A stretch of DNA of 55,801 bases from Bdellovibrionota bacterium FG-2. GTDB taxonomy: Bacteria; Bdellovibrionota; UBA1018. Under the pieces are notes generated by a model. It did not search any database and had not been told where the DNA came from. It saw only the letters and a program-made list of their open reading frames with translations. The translations under genes were made by a program, and so were the position numbers. Location of the stretch: NCBI GenBank assembly GCA_051382305.1, contig JBBCAV010000216.1:1-55801 (forward strand). Reading direction: 5' to 3'. This document shows, one piece after another, positions 7,515-48,228 of the stretch (the first letter of the stretch is position 1; each line of letters opens with the position of its first letter).

Positions 7515-7521
7515 GAGTGGG

Positions 7522-9038: not shown

Positions 9039-9055
9039 CGTGTTCGTGGGGTCAC

Positions 9056-9292: not shown

Positions 9293-9374
9293 GATGCAAA
9301 ACATGACTGGTTTTGCCAAAGATTATGTCATCGCAACCGGCGAAACGCACTCCGTTCGTGAGTTTGTGAATCTT
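9293..9374 (+). pseudogene. gmd: Internal fragment of a gmd homologue
   Basis: [27 protein letters not shown] matches gmd ~15955-16086, with a 48-nt deletion and a frameshift. Confidence 0.8.
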
Positions 9375-9440
9375 TCTACCTAAGGCGCTGGCGGCCCTTG
9401 TTCCTATCAAAATCGCCCCCTGATCTAGCACCTCCCCCCT

Positions 9441-14164: not shown

Positions 14165-14345
14165 GCCCCCTCCTACCGAACGAAGCAATGTTGTGCAAGA
14201 CAAATTTTTATGCACAACTTTTCTATCGATTAAATCGATCGAGTTTGCGATCTGCGCCAAACTATAGGGAAAATAGCTCATTTTTTAGGGCGCCGGGCAT
14301 CTCAAGGTGACGAAGTCGAGATGCCACAATAATGACGCAGACACT

Positions 14346-14361
14346 CCTGTATCGATACAGG
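14346..14361. promoter_or_regulatory. Perfect 16-bp palindrome CCTGTATCGATACAGG, candidate operator
   Basis: Self-complementary; in a divergent intergenic region, 19 nt upstream of a -35-like TAGACA. Confidence 0.4.
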
Positions 14362-14380
14362 TAGACTCACAGATAAAAAA

Positions 14381-14410
14381 TAGACAACCTCCTTCAATTA
14401 TCGCTATTCT
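14381..14410 (+). promoter_or_regulatory. Putative leaderless sigma70 promoter of the MNT-HEPN pair
   Basis: TAGACA-N18-TATTCT-N7-ATG(14418). Confidence 0.5.
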
Positions 14411-14417
14411 TAAAGAG

Positions 14418-14879
14418 ATGGACCTCGCGCTAAGACAACTTTCCGGTGCATGGCTTCGGGACCATGCCCTCTCACTTCTAAATCCACGCCCCCGATGTCT
14501 TGCTGTGTTTGGCTCCTTCTCAGCGGGAACCCTTCACGCCGAAAGTGACTTTGACGTCCTTGTCATCGGGGATCAAATACCCAAACGCCCATTTGCTCGA
14601 ACACAGTGGTTTTTTCCCCTTGCTGAACTGTGGCGCTCTAACCGTCCGGATCCTACGGCACCCTTTTCCATTGCCCCACTTTTTATTTCGGAGGCGGGTT
14701 GGCGTGGATCAATAGGCCTTCGACTTTCGCTTGCACAGAATTGCTGGATCCTCTGGGATGACGGTTTCTTATCGGAAAGTTTGGAAGAATCTCGAAAGTG
14801 GATCAATAATGGTGATTACCACAAGAAAACGACCCCCGATGGGGGCTGGATGTGGATTCCGCGAGGAATCAGCGCATGA
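14418..14879 (+). CDS. Nucleotidyltransferase-domain (MNT) protein
   Basis: AVFGSFSAGTLHAESDFDVLVI; start moved to ATG 14418. Confidence 0.8.
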   Translation: MDLALRQLSGAWLRDHALSLLNPRPRCLAVFGSFSAGTLHAESDFDVLVIGDQIPKRPFARTQWFFPLAELWRSNRPDPTAPFSIAPLFISEAGWRGSIGLRLSLAQNCWILWDDGFLSESLEESRKWINNGDYHKKTTPDGGWMWIPRGISA

Positions 14880-15250
14880 CCGACGGCCAGGCAAAACGAT
14901 CGCAATATTGGGCTAGGACGGCGGCGCGCATCGCCCAAGAAGCGCAAGAAAGCCACAAACAAGGCTTCTTTGATAAATCGATTCGAAAAGCCCAGGAGAG
15001 CGTGGAACTTTTTTTAAAGAGCAAACTCATTGCAAAAGGAATCGAACCCGCAAAGACTCACGACCTTAGGTTTCTCGCAGAGCCCCTGAAAACCGAACTG
15101 CCAGCCGATGTTTTTCCAGGCTTAGATTTCCTAACTTCAGAGCGCATCCCCTCTTTTTATGGGGCAGACGATTTTATTCCCGACGAGGCTTATGAGGTGA
15201 GCGATTCTGAACGGGCACTTGAAGTATTGCAAAAGCTGGGGATAGCTTAA
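14876..15250 (+). CDS. HEPN domain protein
   Basis: [13 protein letters not shown]...AKTHDL; ATGA overlap with the MNT gene. Confidence 0.8.
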
Positions 15251-15300
15251 TTTCCCCTTGCCCTCGCCACTACCTCCGGAGTAGCCTCGCCCACAATCAT

Positions 15301-16302
15301 ATGAAAAAAGCACTTATCACCGGAATCACCGGCCAAGACGGGTCCTATCTCACCGAACTGCTTCTCGAAAAAGGCTATGAAGTTCATGGCCTCATTCGAC
15401 GCTCCAGCTCGTTTAACACGCAACGCTTGGAGCACGTCTACAAAGATCCCCATTTTCAGGACGCAAGACTCAAACTCCATTATGGTGACCTCTCCGACTC
15501 TAGCAACCTAAACCGCCTGCTTCGGACGATCAAACCTGACGAAATTTACAACCTAGGCGCCCAGAGCCACGTGCGCGTGAGTTTCGATACGCCCGAATAC
15601 ACGGCCGATGTCACGGGCCTTGGAACGATTCGCGTTTTGGACGCCATTTTGGAGACCGGGATTCAAACACGCTTTTACCAAGCCTCAAGCAGCGAAATGT
15701 ACGGCAAAGTGCTTGAAGTCCCGCAAAAAGAAACGACACCCTTTTATCCTCGCAGCCCCTATGGGTGCGCCAAAGTTTTCGCTTTTTGGACGACGGTCAA
15801 CTACCGCGAAGCCTACGGCATTCACGCGACCAACGGAATTCTGTTTAACCACGAGTCACCTAGACGTGGCGAAACCTTCGTCACGCGCAAAATTACTCGC
15901 GCTGTCGCCCGGATTGCCGCCAAAAAGCAGGACCTGCTTTATTTGGGAAACTTAGACGCCAAACGAGACTGGGGTTTTGCCAAAGACTATGTCGAAGCCA
16001 TGTGGATGATGGTTCAACGCCCCGTGGCCGACGACTACGTTATCGCTACTGGCGAAACGCACTCCGTGCGCGAGTTCGTAAACCTAGCCTTTGGTGCCGT
16101 AGGCCTTGAAGGTGAAAAATACGTGCGCATCGATCCCAAGTACTACCGCCCTACCGAAGTTGATTTGCTCATCGGCGATCCCTCCAAAGCTCAAAAAGAG
16201 CTGGGCTGGAAACCAAAATGCACGTTCCCAGAACTTGTGCGCATGATGGTCATCGAGGATCTGAAACTTGAGGGACTGGATCCAGAGCGGTTTTTGAAAT
16301 AG
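15301..16302 (+). CDS. gmd: GDP-mannose 4,6-dehydratase
   Basis: [44 protein letters not shown]. Confidence 0.97.
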
Positions 16303-16311
16303 GGGCATCCT

Positions 16312-17253
16312 ATGGCAATCTCCCCTTCCGACTCGATCTACATCGCCGGTCACCAAGGGCTCGTAGGCTCTGCGCTCGTGCGGAAACTCCAAAGCTTGGG
16401 ATATGCGAATCTAATCACGCGTTCACAACAGGAACTCAACCTCCTGGATCAGCGAGCCACTCATGCTTTTTTTGAAACACAACGCATCGATCACGTCTTC
16501 TTGGCTGCGGCCCGCGTGGGCGGGATTCACGCAAATTCCACTTATCCCGCTGATTTTTTGTACGAGAACCTCGTCATCGCCACCAATGTAATTCATGCGG
16601 CGGCCACGAACAACACGAAGAAACTGCTCTTTTTAGGGAGTTCTTGCATCTACCCACGCCTCGCCCCGCAACCCATCAAAGAAGAGAGCTTACTCACCCT
16701 GCCGCTTGAAAAAACCAACGAAGCCTATGCGATTGCCAAAATCGCAGGCCTTAAATTGTGTGAGTACTATTTCCGACAGTACGGTAAAGCGTTTGTTTCC
16801 GCGATGCCCACCAACTTGTATGGCCCCGGGGATAATTTTCACCCAGAGAATTCGCATGTGATTCCTGGCATGATGAGGCGTGTGCATGAAGCAAAACTCG
16901 CGGGAGCGCGCCACGTCACGATCTGGGGCACCGGAACACCCTTGCGTGAATTCTTGCACGTCGATGATCTGGCCGAAGCGCTCGTTTTCCTCATGAACAA
17001 CTACAGCGCGCCTGAAACAATTAACGCGGGCTCGGGGCAAGAACTCACGATTGGGGAGCTTGCGCAGCTCATGAAAAAAGTCGTGGGCTTCAAAGGCGAC
17101 ATCATTTTTGACCTCTCGCGCCCCGATGGCACTCCCAGAAAATGCATGGATAATTCGCGCCTTCAGGCCCTAGGATGGAAACCCAAAATCAGTTTTGAAG
17201 AAGGCCTGGCTCGGACCTATGAGTGGGCAGTGGCGAACGGGAAGCTGGGGTGA
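16312..17253 (+). CDS. fcl: GDP-L-fucose synthase
   Basis: AGHQGLVGSA, AARVGGIHAN, GSSCIYP, YAIAKIAG, MPTNLYGP. Confidence 0.96.
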   Translation: MAISPSDSIYIAGHQGLVGSALVRKLQSLGYANLITRSQQELNLLDQRATHAFFETQRIDHVFLAAARVGGIHANSTYPADFLYENLVIATNVIHAAATNNTKKLLFLGSSCIYPRLAPQPIKEESLLTLPLEKTNEAYAIAKIAGLKLCEYYFRQYGKAFVSAMPTNLYGPGDNFHPENSHVIPGMMRRVHEAKLAGARHVTIWGTGTPLREFLHVDDLAEALVFLMNNYSAPETINAGSGQELTIGELAQLMKKVVGFKGDIIFDLSRPDGTPRKCMDNSRLQALGWKPKISFEEGLARTYEWAVANGKLG

Positions 17254-17270
17254 AATTAACTCGTGAAACC

Positions 17271-17522
17271 CTATGCAGTCTTATTTGTAACGAATCCCTG
17301 CTGAACGAGGAAATAAGGATCGATGTCATAACCGGTCGGCCAAGTCACAATGCCATTGCGAACAAAAACTTTTTTGAACTCAAGAATTGATTTGAGCGGA
17401 TCCACTACAGGCCCAGACTCATTTTTGATTGACGCCATATCCACGCGAATGATGCGACCATCCTCGAGCGTGACAAGGATGCTATAGTCATCATTGGCAA
17501 CCACCTGAATCGCTTTAGTCAT
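17271..17522 (-). CDS. DUF2442 family protein (antitoxin-like)
   Basis: VANDDYSILVTLEDG...IVTWPTGYDIDP; coupled to DUF4160. Confidence 0.8.
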   Translation of the reverse strand: MTKAIQVVANDDYSILVTLEDGRIIRVDMASIKNESGPVVDPLKSILEFKKVFVRNGIVTWPTGYDIDPYFLVQQGFVTNKTA

Positions 17523-17787
17523 TGTCGGCTCCCTGGATGTACTTTGGCATTTCGTTTTTCGAAACTCTTAACCAGTTTTCGGTCAATTCGCTTTTGTGGC
17601 GATTCGCCCATTCTTGGATTAGTTTAGTGACCTTTGGGGGCAGACTTCCAGCTAGCACCTCGCCAGAATCGATCGAAAACGAAGCATCGCCACCCTGATA
17701 CCTCGCGTGAAAATACCTCGCACTATGCCGACCGTGGGCATAATACATGTAAATGGTAATTCCGAAAAAATCTGAAATGCTTGGCAT
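17515..17787 (-). CDS. DUF4160 family protein (toxin-like)
   Basis: MPSISDFFGITIYMY...YFHARY...EWANRHKSELTENW; TTGACC-N17-TAATTT promoter and GGAG SD upstream. Confidence 0.85.
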   Translation of the reverse strand: MPSISDFFGITIYMYYAHGRHSARYFHARYQGGDASFSIDSGEVLAGSLPPKVTKLIQEWANRHKSELTENWLRVSKNEMPKYIQGADND

Positions 17788-17853
17788 TAGCTCTCCGACC
17801 TAGACCAAAATTAGCATTTCCACACCTAAAGGTCAAAATCTTCTAAAACGCCC

Positions 17854-20800
17854 TCACGACAGCAAATACTCAAAATCCCGCTGACTCAACCCCGCCCCTA
17901 CCTTGTTCGGTGTGTCCGCCTCGAGCCCACTTTCCGTCTCCGCCACTTCAAACATCGCATCAAACTGGGCCGATTTGCGTGCCTTGAGCACCTTGATCTT
18001 CTCTTCCACCGAATCCAAAATCAAATAGCGAAACACTTGCACGGGCTTCACCTGCCCCATGCGATGCGCGCGATCGGTCGCTTGGTTTTCAACCGCGGGA
18101 TTCCACCAGGGCTCCAAATGAAACACGTAACTTGCCTTCACCAAATTCAAACCCACGCCCCCTGTCTTGAGCGTCATCAAAAGCACCGCGCCCAAGGGGC
18201 TGGCCTGAAATTCCGACAAAATCCGCTCGCGCTGCACCCTCGTCGTCCCGCCGTGTATCGTAAAGACCTTGATTCCAGCCGATTGCATCATCTGCTCCAA
18301 GCGATGCAAAGTGTGCAGAAACTGCGTGAAAACAAGCGCGCTTTCGCCGGCGTCGATAATTTCCAGCAAGGACTCCAAGAGAAGTTCGGCCTTCGGCGGC
18401 ACCTCCGTATACTTTACTTGCGGAATTCCCCCCGGATCCGAACACGCCTGTCGCAACCGCAACAGCGCCGTGAGCATCATCAAATGACTCTTGGCTTCGC
18501 CATATTGCTCAATTGAACCTTTGACCTTTTCGTTCCAGGAAAGCGCAATATCGCGATAGATTCGCTCCTGCTTCTTCTCAAAGGGGAGTTTAACTTCGGA
18601 TTCAGTCTTCGAAGGAAGTTCAAGCAGCACTTGATTCTTCGTCCTTCTGAGTAAAAGCGGCTTAGATTTAAGCCGCAAAAACTGTACGTCATCGCGGGAA
18701 ATCTGCTCCGGATTCACATAACGCCGCTGAAACTCGGAGAGCTCCCCCAGCGCCCCCGGCACGACGAGATCCATGAGCGAAAAAAATTCGCCAAGATGGT
18801 TCTCTAGCGGTGTACCCGTCAAACAAAGTTTAAACTGCACCTCAAGACTTCGCGCAGCCGAGGTGCGCTTGGCCGCAATGTTTTTCAGATTCTGAGCTTC
18901 ATCGAAAACTAAAATATTCCAGGCAAATTGCGCAAAAAACTCCTGATGCTCAGTCAGCAAACCATAGGTCGCGACAATCACTCGATCAGTTCCCCTTGAC
19001 GCGATGTCCGCTTTATCTTGCCTTTGAAAAATCTGAATCGGCAGCTCAGGTGCAAAACGCGCAGCCTCGGACACCCAATTATAAGTGAGCGACGTGGGTA
19101 CGACGATCAACACCCGGCCCAGCTTGCCCTCACTGCGTAGTTTTTCCAAAAACGCAAGCGTCTGCACGGTCTTGCCCAAGCCCATGTCATCCGCCAAAAT
19201 CCCGCCCAAACGCAGGCGATACAGATCCAAAAGCCACTGCACACTTTGCTTTTGAAACGCCTTGAGTTCAACGTGAAGAGAGGCAGGCAACACGTCTAGT
19301 GTGCGTGCGGTGGCGCCGTCCCTAGTGCCTAGCGCATCGTAAAATGCACAAATTTCTTGCCACTCTTTGCCGCCCTCCACCACTACGCCTGAAGCGCGCA
19401 GGGCCAGGATTTCAAGCGTTCGACACTTTGGCAGCCGGTAGTAGCGCTCCGAAGTTTTCCCACGAGTCTCTGGCCCCTCACCCGCAGCCCCGCCCTGAAG
19501 ATTGGCCCAAAATCGCTCAAGTCTTTTTACCGAAGGCAGCGCACTTTTCTTCAACAGATAATACTGCCCGTGAAATTCAATCACGCCCTCCCCCGCCAGT
19601 TCCGTAAGCCTGGCCGGGTCGATCTCCGTTCCCTTGAAAAAAACTTTGGGGTGCAGCGCAAACCAATCCAGACGCCCACCCGTTGCGAGTTCTTGTGAGG
19701 CTTCTTGTAAATTATGCGAAACCCGAAATTCGGCTCGTAAATCAGTTTCTTCAAAAGACTCGATTTTTCGCCCATTGTAGTAGAGTTCAAACCTGTGCTT
19801 CGCAAGCGAAGCGAGCGCCTCAAGCGCTCCCTTCAAACTCCGAGTCGTATGCACGAGCTGATACCGCTGCGGGCCCAATCCTGTGCCCGGATCACTGGCA
19901 TTCAAAGCAAAATCCCGCAGACGAATATCTTCGACAGGCCCAAGGAAATCTTCGAAAATTGGGACGCGGGTTTTCAAAAAAACACTCCCCTGCGATTGCT
20001 CCACTGAAGCAAGAATGAGCGCATGAAACATTTGCAGCACCATCTTGGAAACCCCTTGCAACCGAAGTTCGCCCTGAGGCGTAAAGATCACCGAATCAGC
20101 CGCCGGAATTGTTTCGGCAAGCACCAGAATCACACTCTCCAAGAGTTCCATCACGCGCCTTGAACAATAATGAGAAAGTTTCTTTTCTTTTACTGCTTGC
20201 GCGCTTTGCGCCTCCCGCGCATCGCGCACCACCTCCCGCGGAATTTCTCCCTGCTTGGTAAGCAACAACACCCAGCGCCGCCCCACTTGCTCTAAGAGCT
20301 CAGCAGCAGACGTCAGTTTCTCAGCAGCTTCCGCACAGGCGATAAACAAAGCGCTCGCCAGCCCCGTATGCCTGAGAATCTTCAGATCGCGATCCCGCTT
20401 TTCGCCCTTCCGATCTTGCGCAATGTCTGTATTCTTAGAGTGTGATGCGCCTCCAATGCCTTGATTCAAAACCCTAATAAACAGGCCCGTAGCGGCCGGC
20501 AAGTTCCAAAGACTTAGGCACCCCTGAGTCTTTGTCTGAACTTTCAACTCAAAGCGCATTTCGCCACTGGTTTCAACCCAGAGCTGAGGCGTGATTTGAG
20601 ATTCTGGAACGACTTCAGCCAGCGTGCGCTCAACAAGAGGCGCGCCCAATTGAGCGAGCTTTCGATCGACCTCGCGCAGGAGTTCTTCAATATGAGCGTG
20701 ACCCTCGATTCGGTATCTTTGGATGATACTGGGGAGAACGCTGGGAACACCGCCGCCCGATTCCCCCAACTCTAGAAAACTTGGCAAAATATGAGCGACA

Positions 20801-22065
20801 CTTCGGATCCAAGCACCGTAGTTGTGAATCCGCATCGCCTGGCGAGTGGAATCGATTTCGAATTGATAATAAATTTGTTCCGTTTCCCCTCCTCCTTGTT
20901 CTTCTGGCGCCTGCGCCCCCTCAAACACAAGCTCCGCCACCCCAAAGGCCTGATCAACGGGAGGACGCAAAGCCCACCGAAAACGAGGGATAGAAGTAAC
21001 TTCAAATCCCCGAAGTTTTAGGCCCTTTCGGGGGCGTGAGGGATCTTCATGATCTACCAAATAGAACTGGATCTCCTCTTTGGCGATTCGTGGGGCCGCA
21101 TTGAGCATCACGGAGAGCAAAATCTGGCGCGCCACCTCACGCCCTCCCCAACGGGAAAAATGTTCTTCGCCAAAAAGATTGAGATTTGGGTTTTGTTGAA
21201 CTTCGGGGCGGAGACTACTGACTAACGGCAGAAGATCTCGGGGCACCCGTGAAGCGAGCGGATGAAAGAGAAGATCCGCAAAACCAATGACTAAGCCATT
21301 TGAAAATCCGAACTGCACTCCCATACGCAACTGCTGATCCGTCTGCTCGTTTCCCCAATAACTTGACGAAATCCTCTGACGCGGAGAAGTGGCGAAAAAA
21401 TCCGGGATTTGCGCGCCCCCCACTAGAGTAGGACTAGGATACACCGAAAACTCCCTCATCTGGGGCGCCCGCTTTGGTGTAAGCGCTTCCGGAAACTCTA
21501 GAATCGAATAGCTGGAGTCCGTGAGCGGCTGTGGCTCTCCTAGATGCAAATACAGATGAGTCAACTCTATCTTAGCATTGCGTGCGTCACTCTTTAGGGT
21601 CTCAGGAGTCGGTGACTCCGCAAGCAGCTGCGAAAATACCCCTCGGAGCGCCCCCTCAAACTCTCGAAGTTTGTCCGTTACCGAAGGCAACAAACCTGCA
21701 AACGCAAAGTTGCGTTGAAGCGTAATCCACAAAACCAGGAAAAAAAGCTTCGTGTGCGGGCACACGGGGTCCTGTTTACCTGGGCAGCAGCTACAAGAAA
21801 TTTCTAAAGGTTGAGTCCTAGAGTGCGCCAGACCCGTCACAAAATAGAGGTCATCGCCCTGCACGCCCATGCGCAGTATCGCGCCATCGTCCGCGTTTTT
21901 CTCGACCTGAAGTACCTTCACCCTTCCATACTTTAGGAAATTGAGAGCGTCCGCGTACTCATCTTGCCCACCAAGGACTTCTCTGAGGAACTTCAAAAAG
22001 CCTAGGGTCGAAAGAAGCTCCAAGGTCACGAAAGACGCGACCGGAGGCACGAGGTAAAGTGTCAT
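17854..22065 (-). CDS. Second SWIM-like SNF2-family helicase/ATPase with long unique N-terminal region
   Basis: CSCC..VCPH; GILADDMGLGKT, DEAQNLKN, TGTPLEN, QATDRAHRMGQ; start may be 22065 or 22125. Confidence 0.9.
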   Translation of the reverse strand: MTLYLVPPVASFVTLELLSTLGFLKFLREVLGGQDEYADALNFLKYGRVKVLQVEKNADDGAILRMGVQGDDLYFVTGLAHSRTQPLEISCSCCPGKQDPVCPHTKLFFLVLWITLQRNFAFAGLLPSVTDKLREFEGALRGVFSQLLAESPTPETLKSDARNAKIELTHLYLHLGEPQPLTDSSYSILEFPEALTPKRAPQMREFSVYPSPTLVGGAQIPDFFATSPRQRISSSYWGNEQTDQQLRMGVQFGFSNGLVIGFADLLFHPLASRVPRDLLPLVSSLRPEVQQNPNLNLFGEEHFSRWGGREVARQILLSVMLNAAPRIAKEEIQFYLVDHEDPSRPRKGLKLRGFEVTSIPRFRWALRPPVDQAFGVAELVFEGAQAPEEQGGGETEQIYYQFEIDSTRQAMRIHNYGAWIRSVAHILPSFLELGESGGGVPSVLPSIIQRYRIEGHAHIEELLREVDRKLAQLGAPLVERTLAEVVPESQITPQLWVETSGEMRFELKVQTKTQGCLSLWNLPAATGLFIRVLNQGIGGASHSKNTDIAQDRKGEKRDRDLKILRHTGLASALFIACAEAAEKLTSAAELLEQVGRRWVLLLTKQGEIPREVVRDAREAQSAQAVKEKKLSHYCSRRVMELLESVILVLAETIPAADSVIFTPQGELRLQGVSKMVLQMFHALILASVEQSQGSVFLKTRVPIFEDFLGPVEDIRLRDFALNASDPGTGLGPQRYQLVHTTRSLKGALEALASLAKHRFELYYNGRKIESFEETDLRAEFRVSHNLQEASQELATGGRLDWFALHPKVFFKGTEIDPARLTELAGEGVIEFHGQYYLLKKSALPSVKRLERFWANLQGGAAGEGPETRGKTSERYYRLPKCRTLEILALRASGVVVEGGKEWQEICAFYDALGTRDGATARTLDVLPASLHVELKAFQKQSVQWLLDLYRLRLGGILADDMGLGKTVQTLAFLEKLRSEGKLGRVLIVVPTSLTYNWVSEAARFAPELPIQIFQRQDKADIASRGTDRVIVATYGLLTEHQEFFAQFAWNILVFDEAQNLKNIAAKRTSAARSLEVQFKLCLTGTPLENHLGEFFSLMDLVVPGALGELSEFQRRYVNPEQISRDDVQFLRLKSKPLLLRRTKNQVLLELPSKTESEVKLPFEKKQERIYRDIALSWNEKVKGSIEQYGEAKSHLMMLTALLRLRQACSDPGGIPQVKYTEVPPKAELLLESLLEIIDAGESALVFTQFLHTLHRLEQMMQSAGIKVFTIHGGTTRVQRERILSEFQASPLGAVLLMTLKTGGVGLNLVKASYVFHLEPWWNPAVENQATDRAHRMGQVKPVQVFRYLILDSVEEKIKVLKARKSAQFDAMFEVAETESGLEADTPNKVGAGLSQRDFEYLLS

Positions 22066-22207
22066 GAGAGCGTTGTTAGACTTCGTCGAGAGAGGTTTGA
22101 CAAGTGAATTTTGCAGGCGCCCCATGCCGCAACGCGTTACTTACGGCAATATTCATAGACAAGCGCTCCGCCGCCTCGCTAATACATAAATAGGCAGGAG
22201 CCTGAGA

Positions 22208-22777
22208 ATGAGCGAACCCGCAAAAAAGCAGCCCACCTATGAAGACCTCTTAGCCATCCCTGAAGGGACACGGGCAGAGATCATCAACGGACACATTGAA
22301 ACCTCGGCAGCGAAGCGAAATTTTGGGCATCGCTATGTGACCTCCGCGATGGCTCAGTCCATTAACTCACGTTTCGGCGGAGGAGACTCCGAGTGGATCA
22401 TCGAGATTGAACCCGACGTACAGTTTGGCCCCAATGTCCTCTCGCCAGACCTCGCAGGGTGGAAAAAAGCGCGAAGAGGAAAAATCAACCCGCTGGAAAG
22501 CCTCGTCACAGTGATTCCAGATTGGGTTTGCGAAATCCTCTCCCCGTCATCAGGACGTCGCGATCGCGTCGAGAAGTTCAAAATCTACCAAGAAACCGGT
22601 GTGGGCTATTATTGGATCGTCGATCCCATCAACCAAACGATTGAAGCGTTTGCCAATGACGCCACTCAAGCAGCTTGGAAACGCATTGGCGTTTGGGGCG
22701 GTGACGAAAAGGCGCGAATTGAGCCCTTTCAAGACATGGAGATTGCGCTGGCGCGGTTTTGGGTGAGCAGCACATGA
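22208..22777 (+). CDS. Uma2-family PD-(D/E)xK endonuclease
   Basis: AEIINGHI, PDLAGW, PDWVCEILSPS, GVGYYWIVDP; GGAG SD. Confidence 0.92.
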   Translation: MSEPAKKQPTYEDLLAIPEGTRAEIINGHIETSAAKRNFGHRYVTSAMAQSINSRFGGGDSEWIIEIEPDVQFGPNVLSPDLAGWKKARRGKINPLESLVTVIPDWVCEILSPSSGRRDRVEKFKIYQETGVGYYWIVDPINQTIEAFANDATQAAWKRIGVWGGDEKARIEPFQDMEIALARFWVSST

Positions 22778-32803: not shown

Positions 32804-33685
32804 TCACATGAGTTGCCAGCTCAGAGTCACGCCAAAAGAGGTCGTATCGAGGCCAATTTTAGCAAAAGGATACAGGTGGAGATAGGGGTTCAGGACCAAG
32901 GTAGGGGTCACCGACCAATTCACCCCCGGCTCTAGATCCGTGCCGGCATTTTCTGAGGAAAACCCCGACTCGCCGACCATATGTGAGGCCGCCATCTCAA
33001 AAAGAAGATTAAACGCGATATTATGCTTTAATTGATAATAAACTAACGGTGCGAAATAGAGTTCAACATCCTCGCCATACCCGTGAGAGCCATAAAAATT
33101 CACGCGAGCCGACCCATTTGCCGCAATGGTGAAACGGCCTCCTTGAATATTATAGCCCAACGTGTGGTAGGTCTGAACCCCCGTAATCCGATCCTGGACC
33201 CGAGAAAGTTGTGAAACGCCAAAATGCACCCGCATATCGCCATAATGATAAAACAAATCCGAATCTCCGAAATTCAAAGTGTGAGATGCGATCAAGAAGG
33301 GGTCGCGCGGCTGAAATTCCTCTCCGGCCAGGGGTTTACAGGTCCAATACACTGTCCCACTCACCGCAAAATCATCGGGCAACGCGCGGGCAACGCTCAT
33401 GAAGTTACGATAGACAACGGGGCGATCAGGGTGGAGCCCCCCCTCAGCCGCTGGTTGGAAATTGGAAAACTGGGTAATGCCCGGGCCTTCGAAAATTCCA
33501 AAATAGTTTATTGCGTAGGGATTATTTTTTTCGCTTTTTTCCGAAAATTCGGGTGGTACGCCCCCCACAAACGCAGAGAGTTCCTCTGGCGATGGGCCTG
33601 CGACATCCGCAGCACTACAATAGCCCGAGAATGCGAAGAGGCAGGGAATCAAGAACCGTCGAATTTGAATCTGATGTGTTTCCAT
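32804..33685 (-). CDS. Secreted hypothetical protein, probable outer-membrane beta-barrel
   Basis: Signal-like N-terminus; amphipathic beta-strand pattern ending FGVTLSWQLM. Confidence 0.55.
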   Translation of the reverse strand: METHQIQIRRFLIPCLFAFSGYCSAADVAGPSPEELSAFVGGVPPEFSEKSEKNNPYAINYFGIFEGPGITQFSNFQPAAEGGLHPDRPVVYRNFMSVARALPDDFAVSGTVYWTCKPLAGEEFQPRDPFLIASHTLNFGDSDLFYHYGDMRVHFGVSQLSRVQDRITGVQTYHTLGYNIQGGRFTIAANGSARVNFYGSHGYGEDVELYFAPLVYYQLKHNIAFNLLFEMAASHMVGESGFSSENAGTDLEPGVNWSVTPTLVLNPYLHLYPFAKIGLDTTSFGVTLSWQLM

Positions 33686-33700
33686 TCTCGGTAAGAACCA

Positions 33701-33716
33701 AGCAAGTGTTCTGCCA
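33701..33716 (-). promoter_or_regulatory. Sigma54 (-24/-12) promoter of the beta-barrel gene
   Basis: TGGCAGA-ACAC-TTGCT with exact spacing, 15 nt upstream of ATG. Confidence 0.6.
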
Positions 33717-33822
33717 GCGAGTGTGCATGACTGTGCGCGTCACGAATTTGGGATGTGATTTGGCGATGACACGAATGAATTTCTGTCTTGGCGTTCTAGA
33801 AAATCGCGTTACAATGATTACA

Positions 33823-34485
33823 ATGGCAAAGGATTCGTTCAAACCTCCCCCAAAGCCCTCAAATCTTGACGACGCGTCTAGTTTGCCGACAGGCGGAGCC
33901 GAAGGTGACCCCTCTGACACGTTGTTTGAGGCACTTCAAGCAGCTAAAGATCGAAAAGCTCGATTTCAGGCGCAAAATCTCGACCTTCCCGTTGAAGAAG
34001 AAACTCAAACGCAGAGCTCTCGATGGCTAGCCCCTCATACCTGGATTGCAATTGGGGGCGTGCTCGCCATTGGAATTCTCATTGGAGGGATGCTCCAAAC
34101 CCTTAACCAAAAATCGCCCGGCAAGGTGAGCCAAGATGAACCACGCTCGCATTTTGCGACGATCAATACGTTGCCAAGCCCCAGCGCTCCCCCCTCAGGC
34201 ACGGGCAACGGAAACGCCTCTGGCGATTCAAGAATTAAGGCGATCAAGCCAAGACTTAATTTTCAGAATCCCTCAAAAAATGCCGCGGTCATGCCAAAAC
34301 CCCAAGAGCCGCCTCGGAACGATCACCCAGAGAACAGACCCGAGCACCAGGATCGTCAAGATAACATTCCGGATCAAGATCGTAATCCGCCCTTCGACAA
34401 TCCGCCGCCTCCCGAGAACCACGATTCTCCCGCAGCTGAGGGATATAATGATGGGCCGATGAATGTGAAAGAAGGCGGGGAGTAA
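33823..34485 (+). CDS. Hypothetical single-TM protein with Pro-rich disordered tail
   Basis: TM WIAIGGVLAIGILIGGML; low-complexity tail; TACAAT-N7-ATG suggests start 33823. Confidence 0.6.
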   Translation: MAKDSFKPPPKPSNLDDASSLPTGGAEGDPSDTLFEALQAAKDRKARFQAQNLDLPVEEETQTQSSRWLAPHTWIAIGGVLAIGILIGGMLQTLNQKSPGKVSQDEPRSHFATINTLPSPSAPPSGTGNGNASGDSRIKAIKPRLNFQNPSKNAAVMPKPQEPPRNDHPENRPEHQDRQDNIPDQDRNPPFDNPPPPENHDSPAAEGYNDGPMNVKEGGE

Positions 34486-34495: not shown

Positions 34496-35377
34496 TTAGT
34501 AAACGAATCGAGTCTCCGGCCCCTCGTGCCAGCCGATGAAGTTGTGACAGAGGGCTCTCCAAAGAAAATAATCAGGACTTTTTGTGTTATATTGTTTCAA
34601 AAGTCTAAGTTGCGGAGAAGGCCAATCGACGCATCTCGCGCTTTCAATTTGCCGTAACGCTTTGTCCTTATCTCGTCCAAAATGAAGAATCCTCTGATCG
34701 ATAACCGATAACGCGGGTGCATTTTCCTCACTCCGATTTAAAAGATGCTTATAAATCATCGCGTGTCGCCAAGCCTCAACTAGACCATGTTGCCAAATAT
34801 CAGCATTTGCGTGAGCAACTCTCGAACCTGGAAAAATTCCGCCATCCTTAATCCCAAGAACAATTCCTATTGAGAGATCGATCTTTCCCAGTCGGGACAT
34901 CGTAGGATCGAGGAAAACAAAATCTCGTCTCAAGAACTGCACTTCGTCAAAATAATTATGAAAATATCGAGCATAGGGATCAAGGGCGCTAGACTCGACT
35001 GAAACTCTCTGTATCGAAAATCCAAAGTCAATCCACTGCGACCAACTCCATCTTTCAATTGCCTCAAAAATGGCACGAAACATGGTCTTTTCCGCATCGA
35101 ATCCCGCAGCACATCCACAAGTCGATGGAAACTCCGGAATCAAAAACTCGTTCACCTCCTCGGTCCCTTGAATCTGCGCAAAAAGCGCCCGTTCGATACA
35201 CTCGGCTACGGCAACTCGCCTTGAAACGGCTGTTGTTGCCCCACATCCTCCACCGTATGCCGCCCCGTTTTGGAGGAAAATTGTAGAATGATACCCAATC
35301 ACATTTTGGAGATCACCAATGAGCAGGTCCTCCATACGTCCAAGGTTAGGAATCAGGTCTTTAAGTAGAGTTAGCAT
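34496..35377 (-). CDS. Minimal YcaO-like protein
   Basis: ATP/Mg-binding-like motifs GGGCG...AVAECIER and STCGCAAG...AIFEAIERW, later GLVEAW; ATG 7 nt after the SBP stop. Confidence 0.75.
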   Translation of the reverse strand: MLTLLKDLIPNLGRMEDLLIGDLQNVIGYHSTIFLQNGAAYGGGCGATTAVSRRVAVAECIERALFAQIQGTEEVNEFLIPEFPSTCGCAAGFDAEKTMFRAIFEAIERWSWSQWIDFGFSIQRVSVESSALDPYARYFHNYFDEVQFLRRDFVFLDPTMSRLGKIDLSIGIVLGIKDGGIFPGSRVAHANADIWQHGLVEAWRHAMIYKHLLNRSEENAPALSVIDQRILHFGRDKDKALRQIESARCVDWPSPQLRLLKQYNTKSPDYFLWRALCHNFIGWHEGPETRFVY

Positions 35378-35384
35378 CAACAAC

Positions 35385-36929
35385 TCAATTCAGATTGAGC
35401 AAATCAAAACGCGGCATATTCATGGTTGGTGAAAATTCCTGTAATCCCACATCCTTCGTGAACAACCACGTCAGCCCTGAGTGCCACAATGGGATGACCG
35501 TCAAGTCTTGGTTAAGGATATTATTAAATTCCACTGCGTATTGGGAATCTACGGTCAGTCGTCCCTCATAGCGCTTCGTAAGTGCACAGAGTTTCCCAGT
35601 GTGATCAGGAAAACCAATGCCAAGATTAGAACAGAACATCATCTTGATTCCCCAGTTTTCAATATTTCCCCCAATATCAACGCGAGCAATGCGAATGTCG
35701 TAGGAGCGGTTAGAACGAGCAAGCTGAAACCAGCCCTCTTTCGTCCGATCTTCCCTCATAAACTCGAGCTTGACCGATGATCCCATAAATATGGCGTTCA
35801 CGAGATCCTTGACGTATTGAGCTTCATCTTCGGTCAGCGTACTGGAGACACAAATTTTAATGGGATTATGGCCCGTCAATTTAAAGGACGTAAAATGGGA
35901 GTCATTTTGATCTACTTTAGTGTGACTGGCGGGGTAAAAAAACTCCGACAGAACTGCTCCCGGGGAATCAAGCGATAGCTGCTTTTGAGCAATTCTTAGT
36001 TTCGTGGCGAACAGTCGGCGGTTTTCGAGGTCATGAAAAAGTCCGCTAATATACGGCGAAAGTACTATGGAATTGAGAATGGTAGGAGTCGCTCGAACCA
36101 CCCGCAGATTCTCGGGAACCCGGTCACGGGCAGAAAGTTTCTTGAAAACAATTGAATGACTTAGGTCGCTCAAAGAAACATCGCCCTTACTTTGTTGGAC
36201 GTGTACCTTTTCGGGGCTCTTTGGTGTCGTTGAAAACCATCCCTGCCTCTTTGAGAGGAAGACTTCGCCTTCGTTCGCGAGGTCTACTCGATAGGCCCCC
36301 GATGCGATGATTGCGTGCGAATTCTTCCATGAATTGTCTAAAGCAAAATCTTTAACGTTATAATATCCGTAATAGGGCATCGCCAGATATTCTAGGAAAC
36401 CATCGGGCTTTGTTTTGAACCTAAATTGAACGCGTTGAGGCTGAGATTTCTCTCCTCCAACGACTCCGAAAACCTTCAGGTCGCCAGACTTAATAAATTC
36501 ATCCCATCCTTCAAGATTCTCAAATACCGGCAAATGTGGGTCAGTTTTAGCAAGAAACCGCAAAACTTTGGCCAATCCTGCGACATAGCTCTCTGAATTA
36601 ATGTCCTGACTGGCATCATCTTTTAGGCCAAGGCGAAGAAAAAACTCCCAAATGCGCCCATCCTCCGAGACATCCCAACGCTCAGCAAGGTAGGGCTCAT
36701 ACCGACCGCCATCATTATACTTCACAAGCGTACCCACCACTTGCTCCATGACGGTCAAATTGCTTAAAGCATCGCTGTCATAGGGCGACACGGAAAACTT
36801 CGTAGGCTCTCCGACAATCAGATATCTCAGGGACATACTTCTACTGAGACACCCGCAGGGAAACATTACGAGGAGCAATATAGCCAACTGGAGAAACCGA
36901 ATCGATCGGCACCTGAATACTGATCCCAT
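35385..36929 (-). CDS. Family-5 (peptide/nickel) ABC substrate-binding protein, orphan
   Basis: GTLVKY..GRYEPYLAERWDVSEDGRIWEFFLR, IASGAYRV, VIPLWH; start 36929 (lipoprotein-like signal) or 36836. Confidence 0.8.
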   Translation of the reverse strand: MGSVFRCRSIRFLQLAILLLVMFPCGCLSRSMSLRYLIVGEPTKFSVSPYDSDALSNLTVMEQVVGTLVKYNDGGRYEPYLAERWDVSEDGRIWEFFLRLGLKDDASQDINSESYVAGLAKVLRFLAKTDPHLPVFENLEGWDEFIKSGDLKVFGVVGGEKSQPQRVQFRFKTKPDGFLEYLAMPYYGYYNVKDFALDNSWKNSHAIIASGAYRVDLANEGEVFLSKRQGWFSTTPKSPEKVHVQQSKGDVSLSDLSHSIVFKKLSARDRVPENLRVVRATPTILNSIVLSPYISGLFHDLENRRLFATKLRIAQKQLSLDSPGAVLSEFFYPASHTKVDQNDSHFTSFKLTGHNPIKICVSSTLTEDEAQYVKDLVNAIFMGSSVKLEFMREDRTKEGWFQLARSNRSYDIRIARVDIGGNIENWGIKMMFCSNLGIGFPDHTGKLCALTKRYEGRLTVDSQYAVEFNNILNQDLTVIPLWHSGLTWLFTKDVGLQEFSPTMNMPRFDLLNLN

Positions 36930-37160
36930 CCAAGGTGGTAAGATCAATTGTTCTATTTTCTTCGTGAACAAGAGCCAAAAACTGATCAGCATTTTGAACA
37001 TCAATCCCTACATTTCTAAACTCATTCAAAAGAGCTTCAAATATATGCCCGTTTCAGCCGCATTGTCCTGCGCCACTACAAACGGGCTCCCGTATGCAGT
37101 ATTTGCCAGAACAATTGACGTCGCCACTACCGATGTCACCAAGTCGCCCATTTTTTTCAT
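36841..37160 (-). CDS. Small secreted peptide/precursor; 44-aa ORF 37026-37160, or ~106 aa if a 1-nt frameshift near 37053 is repaired
   Basis: GGAG SD then MKKMGDLVTSVVATSIVLANTAYG|SPFVVAQDNAAE; adjacent frame continues NGHIFEALLNEFRNVGIDVQ...VSLRVSQ*. Confidence 0.55.
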
Positions 37161-37196
37161 AGAATTTTGTCTCCGCCGCGGGTATACACTACGCCA

Positions 37197-38912
37197 ATGA
37201 TGCGTTGCAACATAAAAATACAGATTTCACACATCCTCAAAATGGCCGGACTATTGACCGCCGCCCTTCTGTTCCTTCAGGGATTATTCTTTTTCATTCA
37301 AAAAACACAAGCTATTGATCTAACGAAAAGCATCGAAGGTATCCTTAGAAACGACGCGAATATGAGGGAGCCCTATCGAATCGCCCAGAGCCTTGGCGAC
37401 CTAGAGTCATTAGGCTTATTCAGATGTTCAGTTTTCAAAAACCATCGCCAACAAACCGTTTTTCAAGACCTGAGTTTTAAACACAAAGAGTCTGATTGTG
37501 AGCCAAGTTTTTGGTTTCTCGATGGGGTTCGAGTCAATACGACGGCGCTTGCGATCAATGGTCAGACCTGGAACATCACCTTTGCGACGAATAATCCGAA
37601 GTCATTTTACCTATACCTCTGGATCGCCCGGATTTTTGTTGTCGGAATTTTTGTCTTAGCGTTAATCATCGTTCGATTCTACATCCGAACAAGAATGATT
37701 GAAGCAGACCTCAAACAACGACACTTTCAAGCCTTGGGCCACCTCGCCGCCCAAGTCTCCCACGATATTCGATCCCCGCTCGCCACTCTTTTGGCCGTTA
37801 TTCACTCCTCCCAAGGCCTCGATGCAACCTCCCGCAATCAAATTAATAACGCCGTAACCCGCATCAGCGATATTGCAAACAACCTCCTCTCGACGAATCG
37901 CGCACAGAAACTCAATGCGACGAATTCCCAATTGTCCGCCGAATCTTCCAGCGTCATGGTTTCGAGTGAGCCGCGCTCGGTGGAACTTATATCGACGCTT
38001 ATCGAGTCAGCGGTTTCTGAAAAGAGACTTCAACTCCGGGGCCAAAACACAGTAGAGCTTGTAGAGAGTATTTCCGCCACCCCAGAGGCAGGGCAGGCAT
38101 TCGTTGAAATTCAGCCGACAGAATTTTCCAGGATCCTCTCCAATCTCATCAACAACGCAGTCGAAGCAATACATGGTACCGGAAAAGTCGTCGTTCATAT
38201 GTCAGCCAACGATGGTCGCGTGTTCCTAATCATCGAAGATACTGGAAAAGGAATTCCACCAGATCTTCTCTCAAAAGTCCTTGAGCATGGTGGAACGTTC
38301 GGAAAAGAGAATGGCAATGGTTTGGGTCTTTTCCACGCAAAGACGACTCTCGAGCTTTGGGGTGGAGCACTCACACTTGAATCAACGCTTGGCATTGGGA
38401 CAAAAGTTAAACTTGAGATCCCCCGTGCACATTCTCCCTCTTGGTTTGTAGATCATCTGTCACTATATACCCCCGCTTCGGTCATTATTCTTGATGACGA
38501 CCCCAGTATCCACACATTATGGAGTGCTCGATTTGAGACCTATTCAACTGGAGTGACCTTGCATCATCTTACTTCATCAGCGGAGATGCTAGCTTGGTAC
38601 CGCAAGAGCTTAGGATCGGTGATCAACCCCCTCTACCTTTGTGATCATGACCTCAGCGGCTCAAATCAAAATGGACTTGATATCATCGATATGCTGGGGA
38701 TCGCCTCCGAATCCATCCTAGTCACCCATCGTGCGGACCAACCGGAGCTTCGCGAGAAGTGCTCAAAAATGGGCATTAGGTTAATGTCGAAAACCTTCGT
38801 GCCTACGATTGGCTTAAGCCCTACCTCAACCCCGGCACATACCTCTTCATTGTATTGCTCCCAATCTTTTGAATCGCCTCCCATGAATTGTGGCACGAAC
38901 ATAAAATTCTAA
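37197..38912 (+). CDS. Membrane hybrid sensor histidine kinase with C-terminal receiver-like domain
   Basis: Two TMs around a periplasmic domain; QVSHDIRSPL, NLINNAVEA, DTGKGIP, GNGLGL; LDDDPSIH...LCDHDL; start 37197 or 37242. Confidence 0.88.
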   Translation: MMRCNIKIQISHILKMAGLLTAALLFLQGLFFFIQKTQAIDLTKSIEGILRNDANMREPYRIAQSLGDLESLGLFRCSVFKNHRQQTVFQDLSFKHKESDCEPSFWFLDGVRVNTTALAINGQTWNITFATNNPKSFYLYLWIARIFVVGIFVLALIIVRFYIRTRMIEADLKQRHFQALGHLAAQVSHDIRSPLATLLAVIHSSQGLDATSRNQINNAVTRISDIANNLLSTNRAQKLNATNSQLSAESSSVMVSSEPRSVELISTLIESAVSEKRLQLRGQNTVELVESISATPEAGQAFVEIQPTEFSRILSNLINNAVEAIHGTGKVVVHMSANDGRVFLIIEDTGKGIPPDLLSKVLEHGGTFGKENGNGLGLFHAKTTLELWGGALTLESTLGIGTKVKLEIPRAHSPSWFVDHLSLYTPASVIILDDDPSIHTLWSARFETYSTGVTLHHLTSSAEMLAWYRKSLGSVINPLYLCDHDLSGSNQNGLDIIDMLGIASESILVTHRADQPELREKCSKMGIRLMSKTFVPTIGLSPTSTPAHTSSLYCSQSFESPPMNCGTNIKF

Positions 38913-39807
38913 GATTTGATAATTCCGCACGCCCACCCAGGGCCACAGGCAATACATGGTCAACCTGTAGCCCGTGGCGAGACTCGCACTTCTTACCGGT
39001 TTCCGGTGAAACAAAGGTGCACGTGCCGCGATCCCTTCGCCAAACTTCAGCACGAAGCGCGGCAGGAATATATCGAGACGACTCCGACGTCGAAGTCATT
39101 GGCTCATGCGTAAAAACCGGAGCCACATTTATATTTCGCCCAGTCTTCGCTTCTGCCCTCTTTTCCTTGCGCTCCCGCTTCTTTTCCGGGTCAACCTGCT
39201 CCAGCGTCCGATCAGCGAGAAGTTCTAAAAGTTGCGCTAGCCCCAGGTTCGGATGCGAATGTGCTAAGAGCCCTTTGCTCTTCTCAAGCTTCTGCATCAA
39301 CTCATCCGAGGCCACTATTCTCAGCTCTGTTTGCGTGGGCGAGATCACCCGAGTGTTCTCTTTAGCCACAGCCGATTCTGGAGAAATCTGACACAAAATC
39401 TTTTCGCACTCCCGATGCGAGCGGCCTTCCATTTTCATAAGCAGCTCCCGCTTCTCATGGGCCGAATATGTCTTGCCCTGCTCTCGTGCCTCGCGCTTCA
39501 GAAAACACTGTACAGTACTCACTGTCGAAAGATTGAGGGCGCCGCTCTCAATTGAAGCGGCCGCACTTGGAACTTCCTTGAGCAGCCGCATCGAATTGAT
39601 TCGTCGCGATGCACTCGCTTCTGAATAGCCCAGTTCCTTAACGGCATACTCAAAAAGTGAGCTGAAGCCCTGCCCCGCATAAAGCCTGCGCCGCTCAACC
39701 TCTCTCAATAATTCAAGCACCTGGGTCGTGAGTTTGCGCTCGTCAGCGGCGAGCTGTCTGATTTGAGAGAGAAGACTTACATCTGGGACACTTTTGAGGT
39801 TTTTCAT
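38821..39807 (-). CDS. Large HNH endonuclease with helical (DUF222-like) N-terminus, likely mobile
   Basis: GFSSLFEYAVKELGYSEASASRRI; RYIPAALRAEVWRRDRGTC..C..LQVDHVLPVALGG..NLRILCSCHN. Confidence 0.8.
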   Translation of the reverse strand: MKNLKSVPDVSLLSQIRQLAADERKLTTQVLELLREVERRRLYAGQGFSSLFEYAVKELGYSEASASRRINSMRLLKEVPSAAASIESGALNLSTVSTVQCFLKREAREQGKTYSAHEKRELLMKMEGRSHRECEKILCQISPESAVAKENTRVISPTQTELRIVASDELMQKLEKSKGLLAHSHPNLGLAQLLELLADRTLEQVDPEKKRERKEKRAEAKTGRNINVAPVFTHEPMTSTSESSRYIPAALRAEVWRRDRGTCTFVSPETGKKCESRHGLQVDHVLPVALGGRAELSNLRILCSCHNSWEAIQKIGSNTMKRYVPGLR

Positions 39808-40139
39808 TCTCTGTCCATAACACGGGAAAATCAGCTCTTTCCAAACGCTCCAGGACGGGCCTAGCAACAAGAATGAATTTCAACATGAGCCGCCCCCCCC
39901 CGGAGTCCCCGAATCGTGCAAGGAGGAACTCCTGAAGGCGCCCAATCACAAGGAGTGACAGGCCTTCTTTCGCTCGAATGAATCTGTGAAAATATTGTCA
40001 ACAAAAAAGCACCTTTAACACAGAATATTTGAGCGCCTTTCCCCGGGGATTCGCACATTCTCAAACATTTGCGCTGCCTACCTCCACCTCCGCAAACACC
40101 CCCTTGACGTACCCCTTCACAACGTCGTACCTCTAAACA

Positions 40140-47859: not shown

Positions 47860-48228
47860 TTAGGCAACCGTGCGCTGCTCTGCTCCTGCTTGATTAATCA
47901 ACTCACAGAGCTCTTCCAAGGTATAGGGCTTAGCCAAGAACCAAGCGCCTCGCATGCGACGCGCACGAAGCTCGCCACCATAAGCCGCTGAAACGACCAC
48001 GGTGGGTGGGACTCTGCCAAAACGAGCGCGAATCGACTCAAAAACCTCTTCGCCCGACATGCCCGGCATCGTCAAATCCAAGAGCATCACGTCAGGCCAT
48101 CGATACTGGAGATATCCAAGGGATTGTTCGCCATTTTCAACGAGATCCGCCTTATGGCCATAGGCCTCAAGAACCATCCCCAGCGTTTCTCTCACCGACT
48201 GATCATCTTCTATCACTAACACTCGCAT
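47860..48228 (-). CDS. Single-domain response regulator
   Basis: VLVIEDD, DVMLLDLTMPGMSG, AKPY. Confidence 0.9.
   Translation of the reverse strand: MRVLVIEDDQSVRETLGMVLEAYGHKADLVENGEQSLGYLQYRWPDVMLLDLTMPGMSGEEVFESIRARFGRVPPTVVVSAAYGGELRARRMRGAWFLAKPYTLEELCELINQAGAEQRTVA

Follow-up and report, generated by a model that had tools for sequence, protein, structure and literature searches.

Enzymes of the YcaO family are otherwise known from antibiotic-type peptides of ribosomal synthesis and post-translational modification (RiPPs), from the thioamidation of McrA and from an ill-defined ribosomal role. Those YcaOs that do not belong to the thiazole/oxazole-modified microcin (TOMM) pathways, the non-TOMM YcaOs, keep the ATP pocket, and the substrates of most of them are not known, according to the available text of the source (PMC4603692). 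On the sensory side, solute-binding proteins (SBPs) stimulate sensor kinases, many of which are encoded next to an sbp gene, as described in the accessible parts of two accounts (PMC8050422, PMC11113362). A locus in which a YcaO gene and such a sensory gene pair stand together lies on contig JBBCAV010000216.1 of Bdellovibrionota bacterium FG-2 (assembly GCA_051382305.1), of which a stretch of 55,801 nucleotides (nt), hereafter the window, was analysed. According to the list of open reading frames (ORFs) and Pfam, the module at 34496-38912 encodes a YcaO protein, a family-5 SBP, an ORF with a signal peptide, here called the small secreted protein (SSP), and a divergent hybrid histidine kinase (HK) with two transmembrane (TM) segments. 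A preliminary description had taken these genes for a candidate RiPP-like peptide signalling module.

The explanation proposed here is that the module represents one copy of a conserved sensory cassette of four genes, present mainly in Bdellovibrionales-type bacteria, in which the SBP and the HK would sense together and the YcaO would modify a polypeptide. Taken as a whole, this reading is given a probability of roughly one in three (0.35), while it is highly probable that the cassette is a functional unit.

Conservation and layout of the cassette

A genome scan with the YcaO motif returned eight loci, seven of which are real (L001-L007); the eighth, L008, was dropped as a chance match of 38 amino acids (aa) without an ORF. 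The loci L001-L004 and L007 come from metagenome-assembled genomes (MAGs) of Bdellovibrionales, Bdellovibrionaceae or Pseudobdellovibrionaceae, L005 from an unclassified bacterium and L006 from an Elusimicrobia MAG. Neighbours were judged by tblastn with the window proteins and by Pfam on 65 neighbouring ORFs, two of the loci running into contig edges (L007 starts inside ycaO and L001 ends inside the SBP gene). The SBP gene adjoins ycaO in all six loci that can be judged for it (L001-L006), being directly upstream in L002-L006 and downstream in L001, and the HK gene follows ycaO directly and on the same strand in 6/6 judgeable loci (L002-L007). The distance between SBP gene and ycaO ranges from a 4-nt overlap to a 5-nt gap in the related loci, and in 5/6 the start of the HK ORF coincides with the YcaO stop or precedes it. 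Identity between orthologues from different loci is only 23-41%, and the flanking genes differ in every locus. Since the same three or four genes are adjacent in seven other loci at ~30% protein identity, the adjacency is more than chance. A mirror-tree correlation of the pairwise identities, which span a narrow range, was uninformative (r = 0.63, 0.38, 0.15). The preliminary description had made its case depend on homologues keeping the SBP, the HK and a small secreted ORF as neighbours. The first two are indeed kept in every locus that can be judged, whereas the SSP is recognisable in only 5/7 assessable loci, namely in the window, where it is frameshifted, and in L001-L004.

In the window the cassette is composed of the following parts.

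34496-35383, minus strand: YcaO gene, starting with the TTG at 35383 (295 aa) or with the ATG at 35377 (293 aa)
35385-37004, minus strand: gene of the orphan family-5 SBP (PF00496), with the ATG at 36929 as its likely start
37026-37160, minus strand: 5' fragment of the SSP gene (44-aa ORF), with a start codon, a signal-like peptide, ~20 more residues and a premature stop
36841-37053, minus strand: 3' fragment of the SSP gene, in another frame (three-frame translation, tblastn)
37029-37053, minus strand: interval holding the SSP frameshift, bounded by a stop in each frame and containing a short AT-dinucleotide run
37167-38912, plus strand: HK gene, 581 aa (Pfam, hydropathy scan)
~37242-37298, plus strand: TM1 of the HK (hydropathy)
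~37299-37610, plus strand: periplasmic sensor domain of the HK (hydropathy)
~37611-37679, plus strand: TM2 of the HK (hydropathy)
~37734-37904, plus strand: HisKA region of the HK with H199 (Pfam, alignment)
~38115-38429, plus strand: HATPase_c domain of the HK (Pfam, alignment)
~38481-38777, plus strand: receiver-like region of the HK (Pfam, alignment)

The 44-aa ORF, the SBP gene and ycaO follow one another in this order on the minus strand, with 1-7 nt between the SBP stop and the YcaO start. The divergent position of the HK gene is peculiar to the window when compared with the relatives. The gap between the 44-aa ORF and the HK gene amounts to 6 nt from the first possible HK start, to 33-36 nt from the paired ATGs and to 81 nt if the HK starts at the ATG before TM1, which is consistent with the 36-81 bp given earlier; the tight minus-strand run facing a two-TM kinase was likewise found as described, with all ORFs present and two hydrophobic segments in the HK. 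The module had also been called AT-richer than its surroundings, and its GC content is in fact 46.6%, compared with 51.4% in the rest of the window. Indeed, the module lies 1.5-6.4 points under the rest of its own contig in 8/8 sequences (window and L001-L007), across host GC contents of 36% to 62%, so that the low GC belongs to the cassette itself and is not a mark of recent transfer into the window genome.

Of the partner genes that had been reported as missing, Pfam and NCBIfam scans likewise found no permease, ATPase, TfuA, E1/ThiF or dehydrogenase gene beside the module in the window, and in the seven related loci there is no Opp/Dpp-type permease, TfuA or E1-like partner. PADLOC matched no defence-system model to the YcaO, SBP, HK or SSP, Rfam gave no RNA family in the window, and the scan for promoters and terminators returned counts equal to the shuffle level.

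Components of the cassette and their surroundings

PF02624 recognises the window YcaO at 31.5 bits (cut-off 25.7), with the match limited to residues 87-159 (73 residues). Among the related YcaO ORFs that were called whole, that of L004 passes (39.9 bits), that of L005 stays just under the cut-off (24.3 bits) and those of L002 and L003 give no match; the ORFs of L001 and L007 give no match either, and the L006 YcaO was outside the scan. The NCBIfam models of YcaO subfamilies all score far below their cut-offs (TIGR03266, 16.5 bits vs 365; TIGR03604, 13 bits vs 219). An AlphaFold 2 (AF2) model built with 11 homologues has a mean predicted local distance difference test score (pLDDT) of 91.6 and a predicted template-modelling score (pTM) of 0.90, and Foldseek returned 38 matches to it in the PDB at E<=1e-3. 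All among the matches listed are YcaO-domain proteins (M. kandleri YcaO, M. jannaschii YcaO, McbD, E. coli YcaO, LynD, TruD and 7u58), the best being those of M. kandleri and M. jannaschii, which modify McrA. Full-length matches have a TM-score, normalised to the query, of 0.47-0.58, and the window protein is ~70-100 residues shorter than any solved YcaO matched (targets of 360-748 aa). With this fold, and with PF02624 and PF00496 (49 bits) both above their cut-offs, the earlier assignment of the two genes to the YcaO and family-5 SBP families is borne out.

The small size is shared by the relatives. When 5.8 billion proteins were searched by words, only 11 YcaO matches came up, all of 280-293 aa. 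A profile search of 1.84 billion representatives (50% clustering) yielded 624 matches at E<=1e-3, of which 206 reach E<=1e-30, and nearly all of the best 150 are 275-300 aa long; homologues cover 98-100% of the query. Look-alike clusters in the ESM Atlas (137, 179 and 51 members) are mostly from Bdellovibrionota, with one from Verrucomicrobiota. No fused or longer form was found, which is weak evidence, and tblastn with the YcaO gave no match in a plasmid collection. This well-delimited clade, with its 206 representatives (50% clustering), is the smallest form of YcaO met in the analysis. The YcaO encoded in the window is cytoplasmic by hydropathy, its best stretch of 17 residues reaching only 1.40 without any hydrophobic segment.

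For the family alignment, 144 of 157 proteins were kept, being those of 270-330 aa, and these relatives are 27-52% identical to the window protein. E59, E62, E105, E108, E201, G88 and G184 are conserved in 100% of the 144 sequences and R63, R109, R204 and R274 in 97-99%, and 121/144 proteins end in R-F-[VIL]-Y. When the 144-sequence profile was aligned to E. coli YcaO with hhalign, E59/E62/R63 fell on E75/E78/R79 and E105/E108/R109 on E199/E202/R203, in a register that passes over a ~100-residue insertion of the E. coli protein; a first alignment from 11 sequences had put motif 1 onto E. coli motif 2 and was replaced by this one. In E. coli YcaO, E75, E78, E199 and E202 are the residues which we take to bind ATP/Mg2+. 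Judged by alignment and model, the window protein is a genuine but minimal YcaO, with the predicted acidic ATP/Mg2+ site kept. Features of TOMM enzymes are lacking, since among 65 neighbouring proteins of 8 loci and in the window no fused or adjacent E1-like/Ocin-ThiF partner with a RiPP recognition element (RRE) occurs. Azoline-forming YcaOs presumably carry a proline-rich C-terminus, in place of which this family has its R-F-[VIL]-Y end. It also differs from thioamidases of the TfuA type, with no TfuA in any locus and the methanogen marker-1 equivalog, TIGR03266, at the low score given above.

The second component, the SBP, matches PF00496 (cut-off 32.4 bits) with its N-terminal part only. 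Its start is probably the ATG at 36929 rather than 37004, because a basic stretch then sits directly before the hydrophobic anchor. A profile of six SBP orthologues finds solved structures at E 1e-19 to 1e-10, these relatives being oligopeptide (OppA3), murein-peptide (MppA), pheromone (PrgZ) and nickel (NikA) binding proteins. All six orthologues have an N-terminal hydrophobic 17-mer (hydropathy 2.0-2.8, a heuristic export signal), and a classical lipobox is not evident by eye; they are conserved over their full length, including an invariant M-F-C-S motif. An Opp/Dpp-type permease or ATPase adjoins the SBP gene in 0/7 related loci and nowhere in the window, the only transporter genes being a phosphate-type set of periplasmic binding protein, permease and ATPase in L004, on the other strand and ~0.8 kb past the HK. 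The SBP is therefore a transporter-less (orphan) family-5 protein, as had been proposed, which the absence of permease genes sets apart from importer components. In L005, three more SBP_bac_5 paralogues lie beside the cassette SBP (L005:267-4765), and the 12-kb contig holds no permease genes.

The HK has hydrophobic segments at residues ~26-44 and ~149-171 (hydropathy scan). Pfam finds HATPase_c at 67.8 bits, HisKA just under the cut-off at 24.5 bits and, weakly, a receiver-like domain (14.3 bits, E 0.047). The periplasmic sensor domain of ~100 aa carries an invariant Cys pair (C87/C111), and D78, C87, C111, G132 and H199 are invariant across the seven orthologous HKs. Because the periplasmic domains align with invariant D78, C87, C111 and G132, the kinases are, by their sequences, true orthologues with a sensor domain that is specific to the cassette. 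ESM Atlas look-alikes of this domain are sCache and LapD_MoxY_N, all below 0.9 and leads only. The nearest stand-alone receiver protein of the window is encoded 9 kb off at 47860-48228 on the minus strand (68.9 bits); it would be the closest potential phospho-acceptor, but nothing ties it to the cassette.

The SSP is the least uniform component. In the window, the 44-aa ORF has a hydrophobic core (hydropathy 2.22, residues 10-19) and a GGAG 12 nt upstream of its ATG, and its own frame runs into two stops. The interval 36841-37053 is open in another frame and matches the C-terminal two-thirds of the intact 107-aa SSP of L002, with 31% of residues identical across 64 aa and E 2e-4 to 6e-4 in a database of ~150 kb; a search with the SSP profile picks up the 62-aa ORF of this 3' fragment (P0164) at E 2e-10. 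On these comparisons the window gene is read as a frameshifted copy of a real, fast-evolving secreted protein of ~105 aa. The shift within 37029-37053 may be a real mutation or an assembly error, as the two would look alike in the sequence. In L001-L004 a signal-peptide ORF of 105-126 aa with a mature part of about 80 aa lies directly upstream of the SBP gene, and the L003 and L004 proteins match each other at E 8e-11. The SSP gene is always beside that of the SBP, also in L001 where the order is YcaO-SSP-SBP. Thus the small secreted precursor of the preliminary description is retained as a signal-peptide ORF upstream of the SBP, but it is a protein of ~105-126 aa rather than a short peptide, and it is frameshifted in the window. 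A profile search returned seven proteins, four from the loci and the window and three new close relatives, all unnamed or "hypothetical", and NCBIfam gave no match for the SSPs. In every locus that bears an SSP, its 3' end overlaps the 5' end of the SBP gene, which encodes the membrane anchor, by ~90-125 nt in a different frame; for the 3' fragment of the window the overlap is ~89 nt (36841-36929) if the SBP starts at 36929. A complex prediction for the L004 pair, made with the mature SSP, the SBP without its anchor and separate alignments, gave scores of 0.00 and 0.05 (mark 0.32), the partner fold being uncertain, so that the outcome weighs neither for nor against binding.

Several further features surround the cassettes. 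In the window, an HNH endonuclease with DUF222 as its N-terminal region is encoded at 38821-39870 (minus strand) by a gene that is convergent with the HK gene, overlaps its last ~92 nt and may mark a rearrangement. A 19-nt inverted repeat, 79% complementary, that frames the HK gene almost exactly (37157-37175 / 38896-38914) was taken as probable chance, as it is one of 16 similar pairs in 6.7 kb. The region adjoining ycaO (32804-34485) holds two overlapping ORFs, neither with a Pfam or NCBIfam family match. The minus-strand ORF has 293 aa and its N-terminus is signal-like, while the plus-strand ORF of 324 aa is proline-rich and has one hydrophobic segment. Farther away, 5525-22777 is rich in genes of defence or mobile type, among them a Schlafen/AlbA_2-HATPase_c_4 protein, a HEPN protein and a Uma2-family endonuclease, and also encodes two helicases of the SNF2 family that are very large, at 1114 and 1423 aa, and of which one has a SWIM finger. 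As for the related loci, genes of trypsin-like proteases lie downstream of the HK in two of seven (L002:11807-12751, L005:9803-10687), and only L002 has a nitroreductase-family gene, which is on the opposite strand, 3.4 kb past the HK (L002:15068-16051). Directly after the HK of L006 (L006:12495-14763) come two small ORFs that have a leader-like N-terminus in common and are rich in Cys at the C-terminus. A gene for a radical-SAM/Fer4_12 protein follows them, and the arrangement looks like a separate radical-SAM RiPP cluster.

Proposed circuit and rival explanations

In the proposed circuit the SSP would be a small Sec-exported protein, the SBP a membrane-anchored, transporter-less protein, the YcaO a cytoplasmic enzyme of ~285 aa and the HK a dedicated kinase. 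The SBP would be an extracytoplasmic co-sensor and would report its ligand occupancy to the HK, a step which, by analogy with described sensors, is somewhat favoured. The YcaO would use ATP to activate a backbone amide of a polypeptide encoded in the cassette, most plausibly the SSP before Sec export, and the cell would thus make part of its own periplasmic ligand or co-receptor. What makes the SSP the most economical candidate substrate is its small size, its apparently poor structure and the constant place of its gene beside that of the SBP. A precedent for the cytoplasmic modification of a precursor with a Sec signal is provided by the bufferins, as the available text on them describes (PMC11626156). 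That the YcaO acts on the SSP, a putative substrate, is proposed by analogy and only tentatively, the odds being rather against it. In its fullest form the circuit would comprise a partner-free YcaO that puts a backbone modification of the amidine, oxazoline or thioamide type on a protein of ~80 aa, which would be Sec-exported, read by the SBP and switch the HK. This complete chain is unlikely as it stands; if true, it would amount to a self-made, enzyme-encoded protein signal and thus to a new class of bacterial signalling circuit, with the first signalling role for YcaO chemistry.

A number of observations weigh against this proposal. No result ties the YcaO chemically or physically to the SSP. 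Furthermore, none of the six SSP sequences has a Cys after the first 30 residues, which removes thiazoline formation, the commonest YcaO chemistry, and the Ser+Thr fraction after the signal peptide is 0.05-0.20, so that a core rich in Cys, Ser or Thr is not seen. The AF2 model of the SSP is unreliable (pLDDT 44), with a tentative three-stranded sheet only. The part of the SSP that is conserved best coincides, in L002 and L003, with the start and membrane anchor of the SBP in the other frame, and some of the apparent SSP conservation may therefore stem from the SBP frame. L005 has a 107-aa ORF with a hydrophobic N-terminus at the SSP position, without detectable similarity to the other SSPs, and in L006 two tRNA genes and no SSP are found upstream of the SBP gene, yet SBP, YcaO and HK are kept. 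On the side of the kinase, only the HKs of the window, L003 and L006 have a receiver, the other four of the seven lacking one, and in the loci scanned neither a response regulator nor an Hpt gene is conserved next to the cassette. As for the enzyme, E. coli YcaO is aligned only weakly, at E 0.003 and a probability of 10%, and the YcaO profile searched against PDB sequences is marginal, with 6ci7 at E 0.7 and chance matches to PdxS in the top rows.

Among the alternatives, the one that fares best concerns the window copy and is compatible with any mechanism, namely that this cassette is decaying, with a real SSP frameshift and a moved HK. The SSP frame is broken within the interval given above, the HK is divergent in the window but co-directional in 6/6 relatives, and the HNH/DUF222 gene overlaps the 3' end of the HK gene. 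By contrast, YcaO, SBP and HK are of full length compared with the relatives, as also reflected in the query coverage of the YcaO, and an error in a single base of a metagenome assembly would look alike. Decay is thus possible, if on the doubtful side, and the window copy, being rearranged and frameshifted, may be impaired.

The main rival view of the chemistry is that the YcaO modifies the HK, or the SBP before export, much as archaeal YcaO thioamidates McrA, and that the SSP is only a periplasmic accessory of the SBP/HK sensor. Such an arrangement would fit with the McrA-modifying enzymes being the best fold matches and with L006 doing without an SSP, and the overlapping or abutting position of ycaO relative to the HK gene in 5/6 loci and to the SBP gene in 6 suggests coupled synthesis. 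However, the likeness to the archaeal YcaOs may reflect small size alone, with TIGR03266 far from its cut-off, and no TfuA or other sulfur-transfer gene is found in any locus; moreover, the HK is uncoupled from ycaO in the window and no HK lies upstream of the YcaO in L001. Modification of the sensor proteins themselves is therefore considered unlikely.

Alternatively, the substrate could be another, variable peptide, encoded elsewhere or nearby and sensed by SBP and HK, with the SSP unrelated to the chemistry. In favour of this, the small Cys-rich ORFs of L006 share a leader-like N-terminus and precede a radical-SAM gene, and the family-5 SBP YejA has been reported, in the accessible part of the source, to take part in the uptake of the YcaO-made peptide phazolicin (PMC10128002). 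Yet when the eight sequences were scanned, Cys-rich small ORFs within 4 kb of the module were credible only in L006, where the cluster comes with a radical-SAM maturase of its own and may be no more than a neighbour, which leaves a separate variable peptide a distinctly unlikely substrate.

It has also to be considered that the minimal YcaO is an ATP-binding regulator or scaffold of the kinase and not a peptide-modifying enzyme. Its deficit of ~70-100 residues against the solved YcaOs, the absence of a partner protein and the lack of the proline-rich C-terminus, which we take to mark azoline formation, would suit such a role. Against it, the five acidic residues, three arginines and the R-F-[VIL]-Y end are kept at 27-52% identity, as selection on catalysis would give, and a purely regulatory function is accordingly judged improbable. 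Finally, the reading as ordinary neighbours, in which an SBP for peptide uptake lies beside a kinase unrelated to it and a stray YcaO, is very improbable, every component coming from a common family but the adjacency recurring in seven loci with different flanks each time, without a permease and with an orthologous HK sensor domain that keeps its Cys pair.

Comparison with known systems

The preliminary description knew of no characterised system with this architecture, and this was the outcome here as well: full-text searches, whose scope left most subscription journals and all supplements outside, returned no description of a YcaO-SBP-HK cassette. The cassette is thus apparently undescribed and suggests a signalling system of new make-up, the chemistry of which is putative. 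With a YcaO clade tied to a sensory module, the candidate substrates narrow to the SSP, SBP and HK, and the four genes make a practical system for asking what a minimal YcaO needs in substrate recognition. If the modification feeds the SBP-HK sensor, it would represent a novel bacterial means of building a signal; many hosts of the cassette are from predatory lineages.

The YcaO itself is most readily compared with the McrA-thioamidating enzymes of M. kandleri and M. jannaschii and the non-TOMM YcaOs, with which it shares the YcaO fold, the conserved acidic ATP/Mg2+ site and the lack of an E1-like or TfuA partner gene. It differs from the M. kandleri and M. jannaschii proteins in its length (~285 aa vs 360-385 aa), in scoring far under the TIGR03266 cut-off and in its own R-F-[VIL]-Y C-terminus. 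Furthermore, it is found in an SBP-HK context, whereas the small partner-independent YcaOs occur in methanogenesis or ribosomal contexts. With the TOMM cyclodehydratases (McbD, LynD, TruD, SagD) the cassette enzyme has the fold and the ExxER-type motifs in common, but there is no C-protein/RRE partner and no dehydrogenase, TIGR03604 stays at 13 bits vs 219, the candidate substrate SSP is without Cys past residue 30, and the proline-rich C-terminus, presumably typical of these enzymes, is lacking.

Bufferins, which are MNIO-modified RiPPs, resemble the cassette of those loci in which an SSP is recognisable (5/7 assessable) in that an unusually long, precursor-like protein with a Sec signal is encoded beside a cytoplasmic peptide-modifying enzyme, and the bufferin product stays in the periplasm, both according to the available text of PMC11626156. 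In contrast to them, the cassette has a YcaO and not an MNIO/DUF692 enzyme, its SSP lacks Cys in the mature region, the link is to a kinase and not to copper genes, and modification of the SSP is putative. The sensory half of the cassette resembles SBP-dependent two-component sensors, as an SBP gene lies beside an HK with a periplasmic domain (window, L002-L006) without a cognate permease. Examples of SBP-dependent sensing are LuxP/LuxQ, TorT/TorS and the DppA-Tap relay. Apart from having no linked response regulator, the cassette differs from such sensors in that its SBP is a membrane-anchored protein of family 5 and shares its operon with a YcaO and a small secreted protein.

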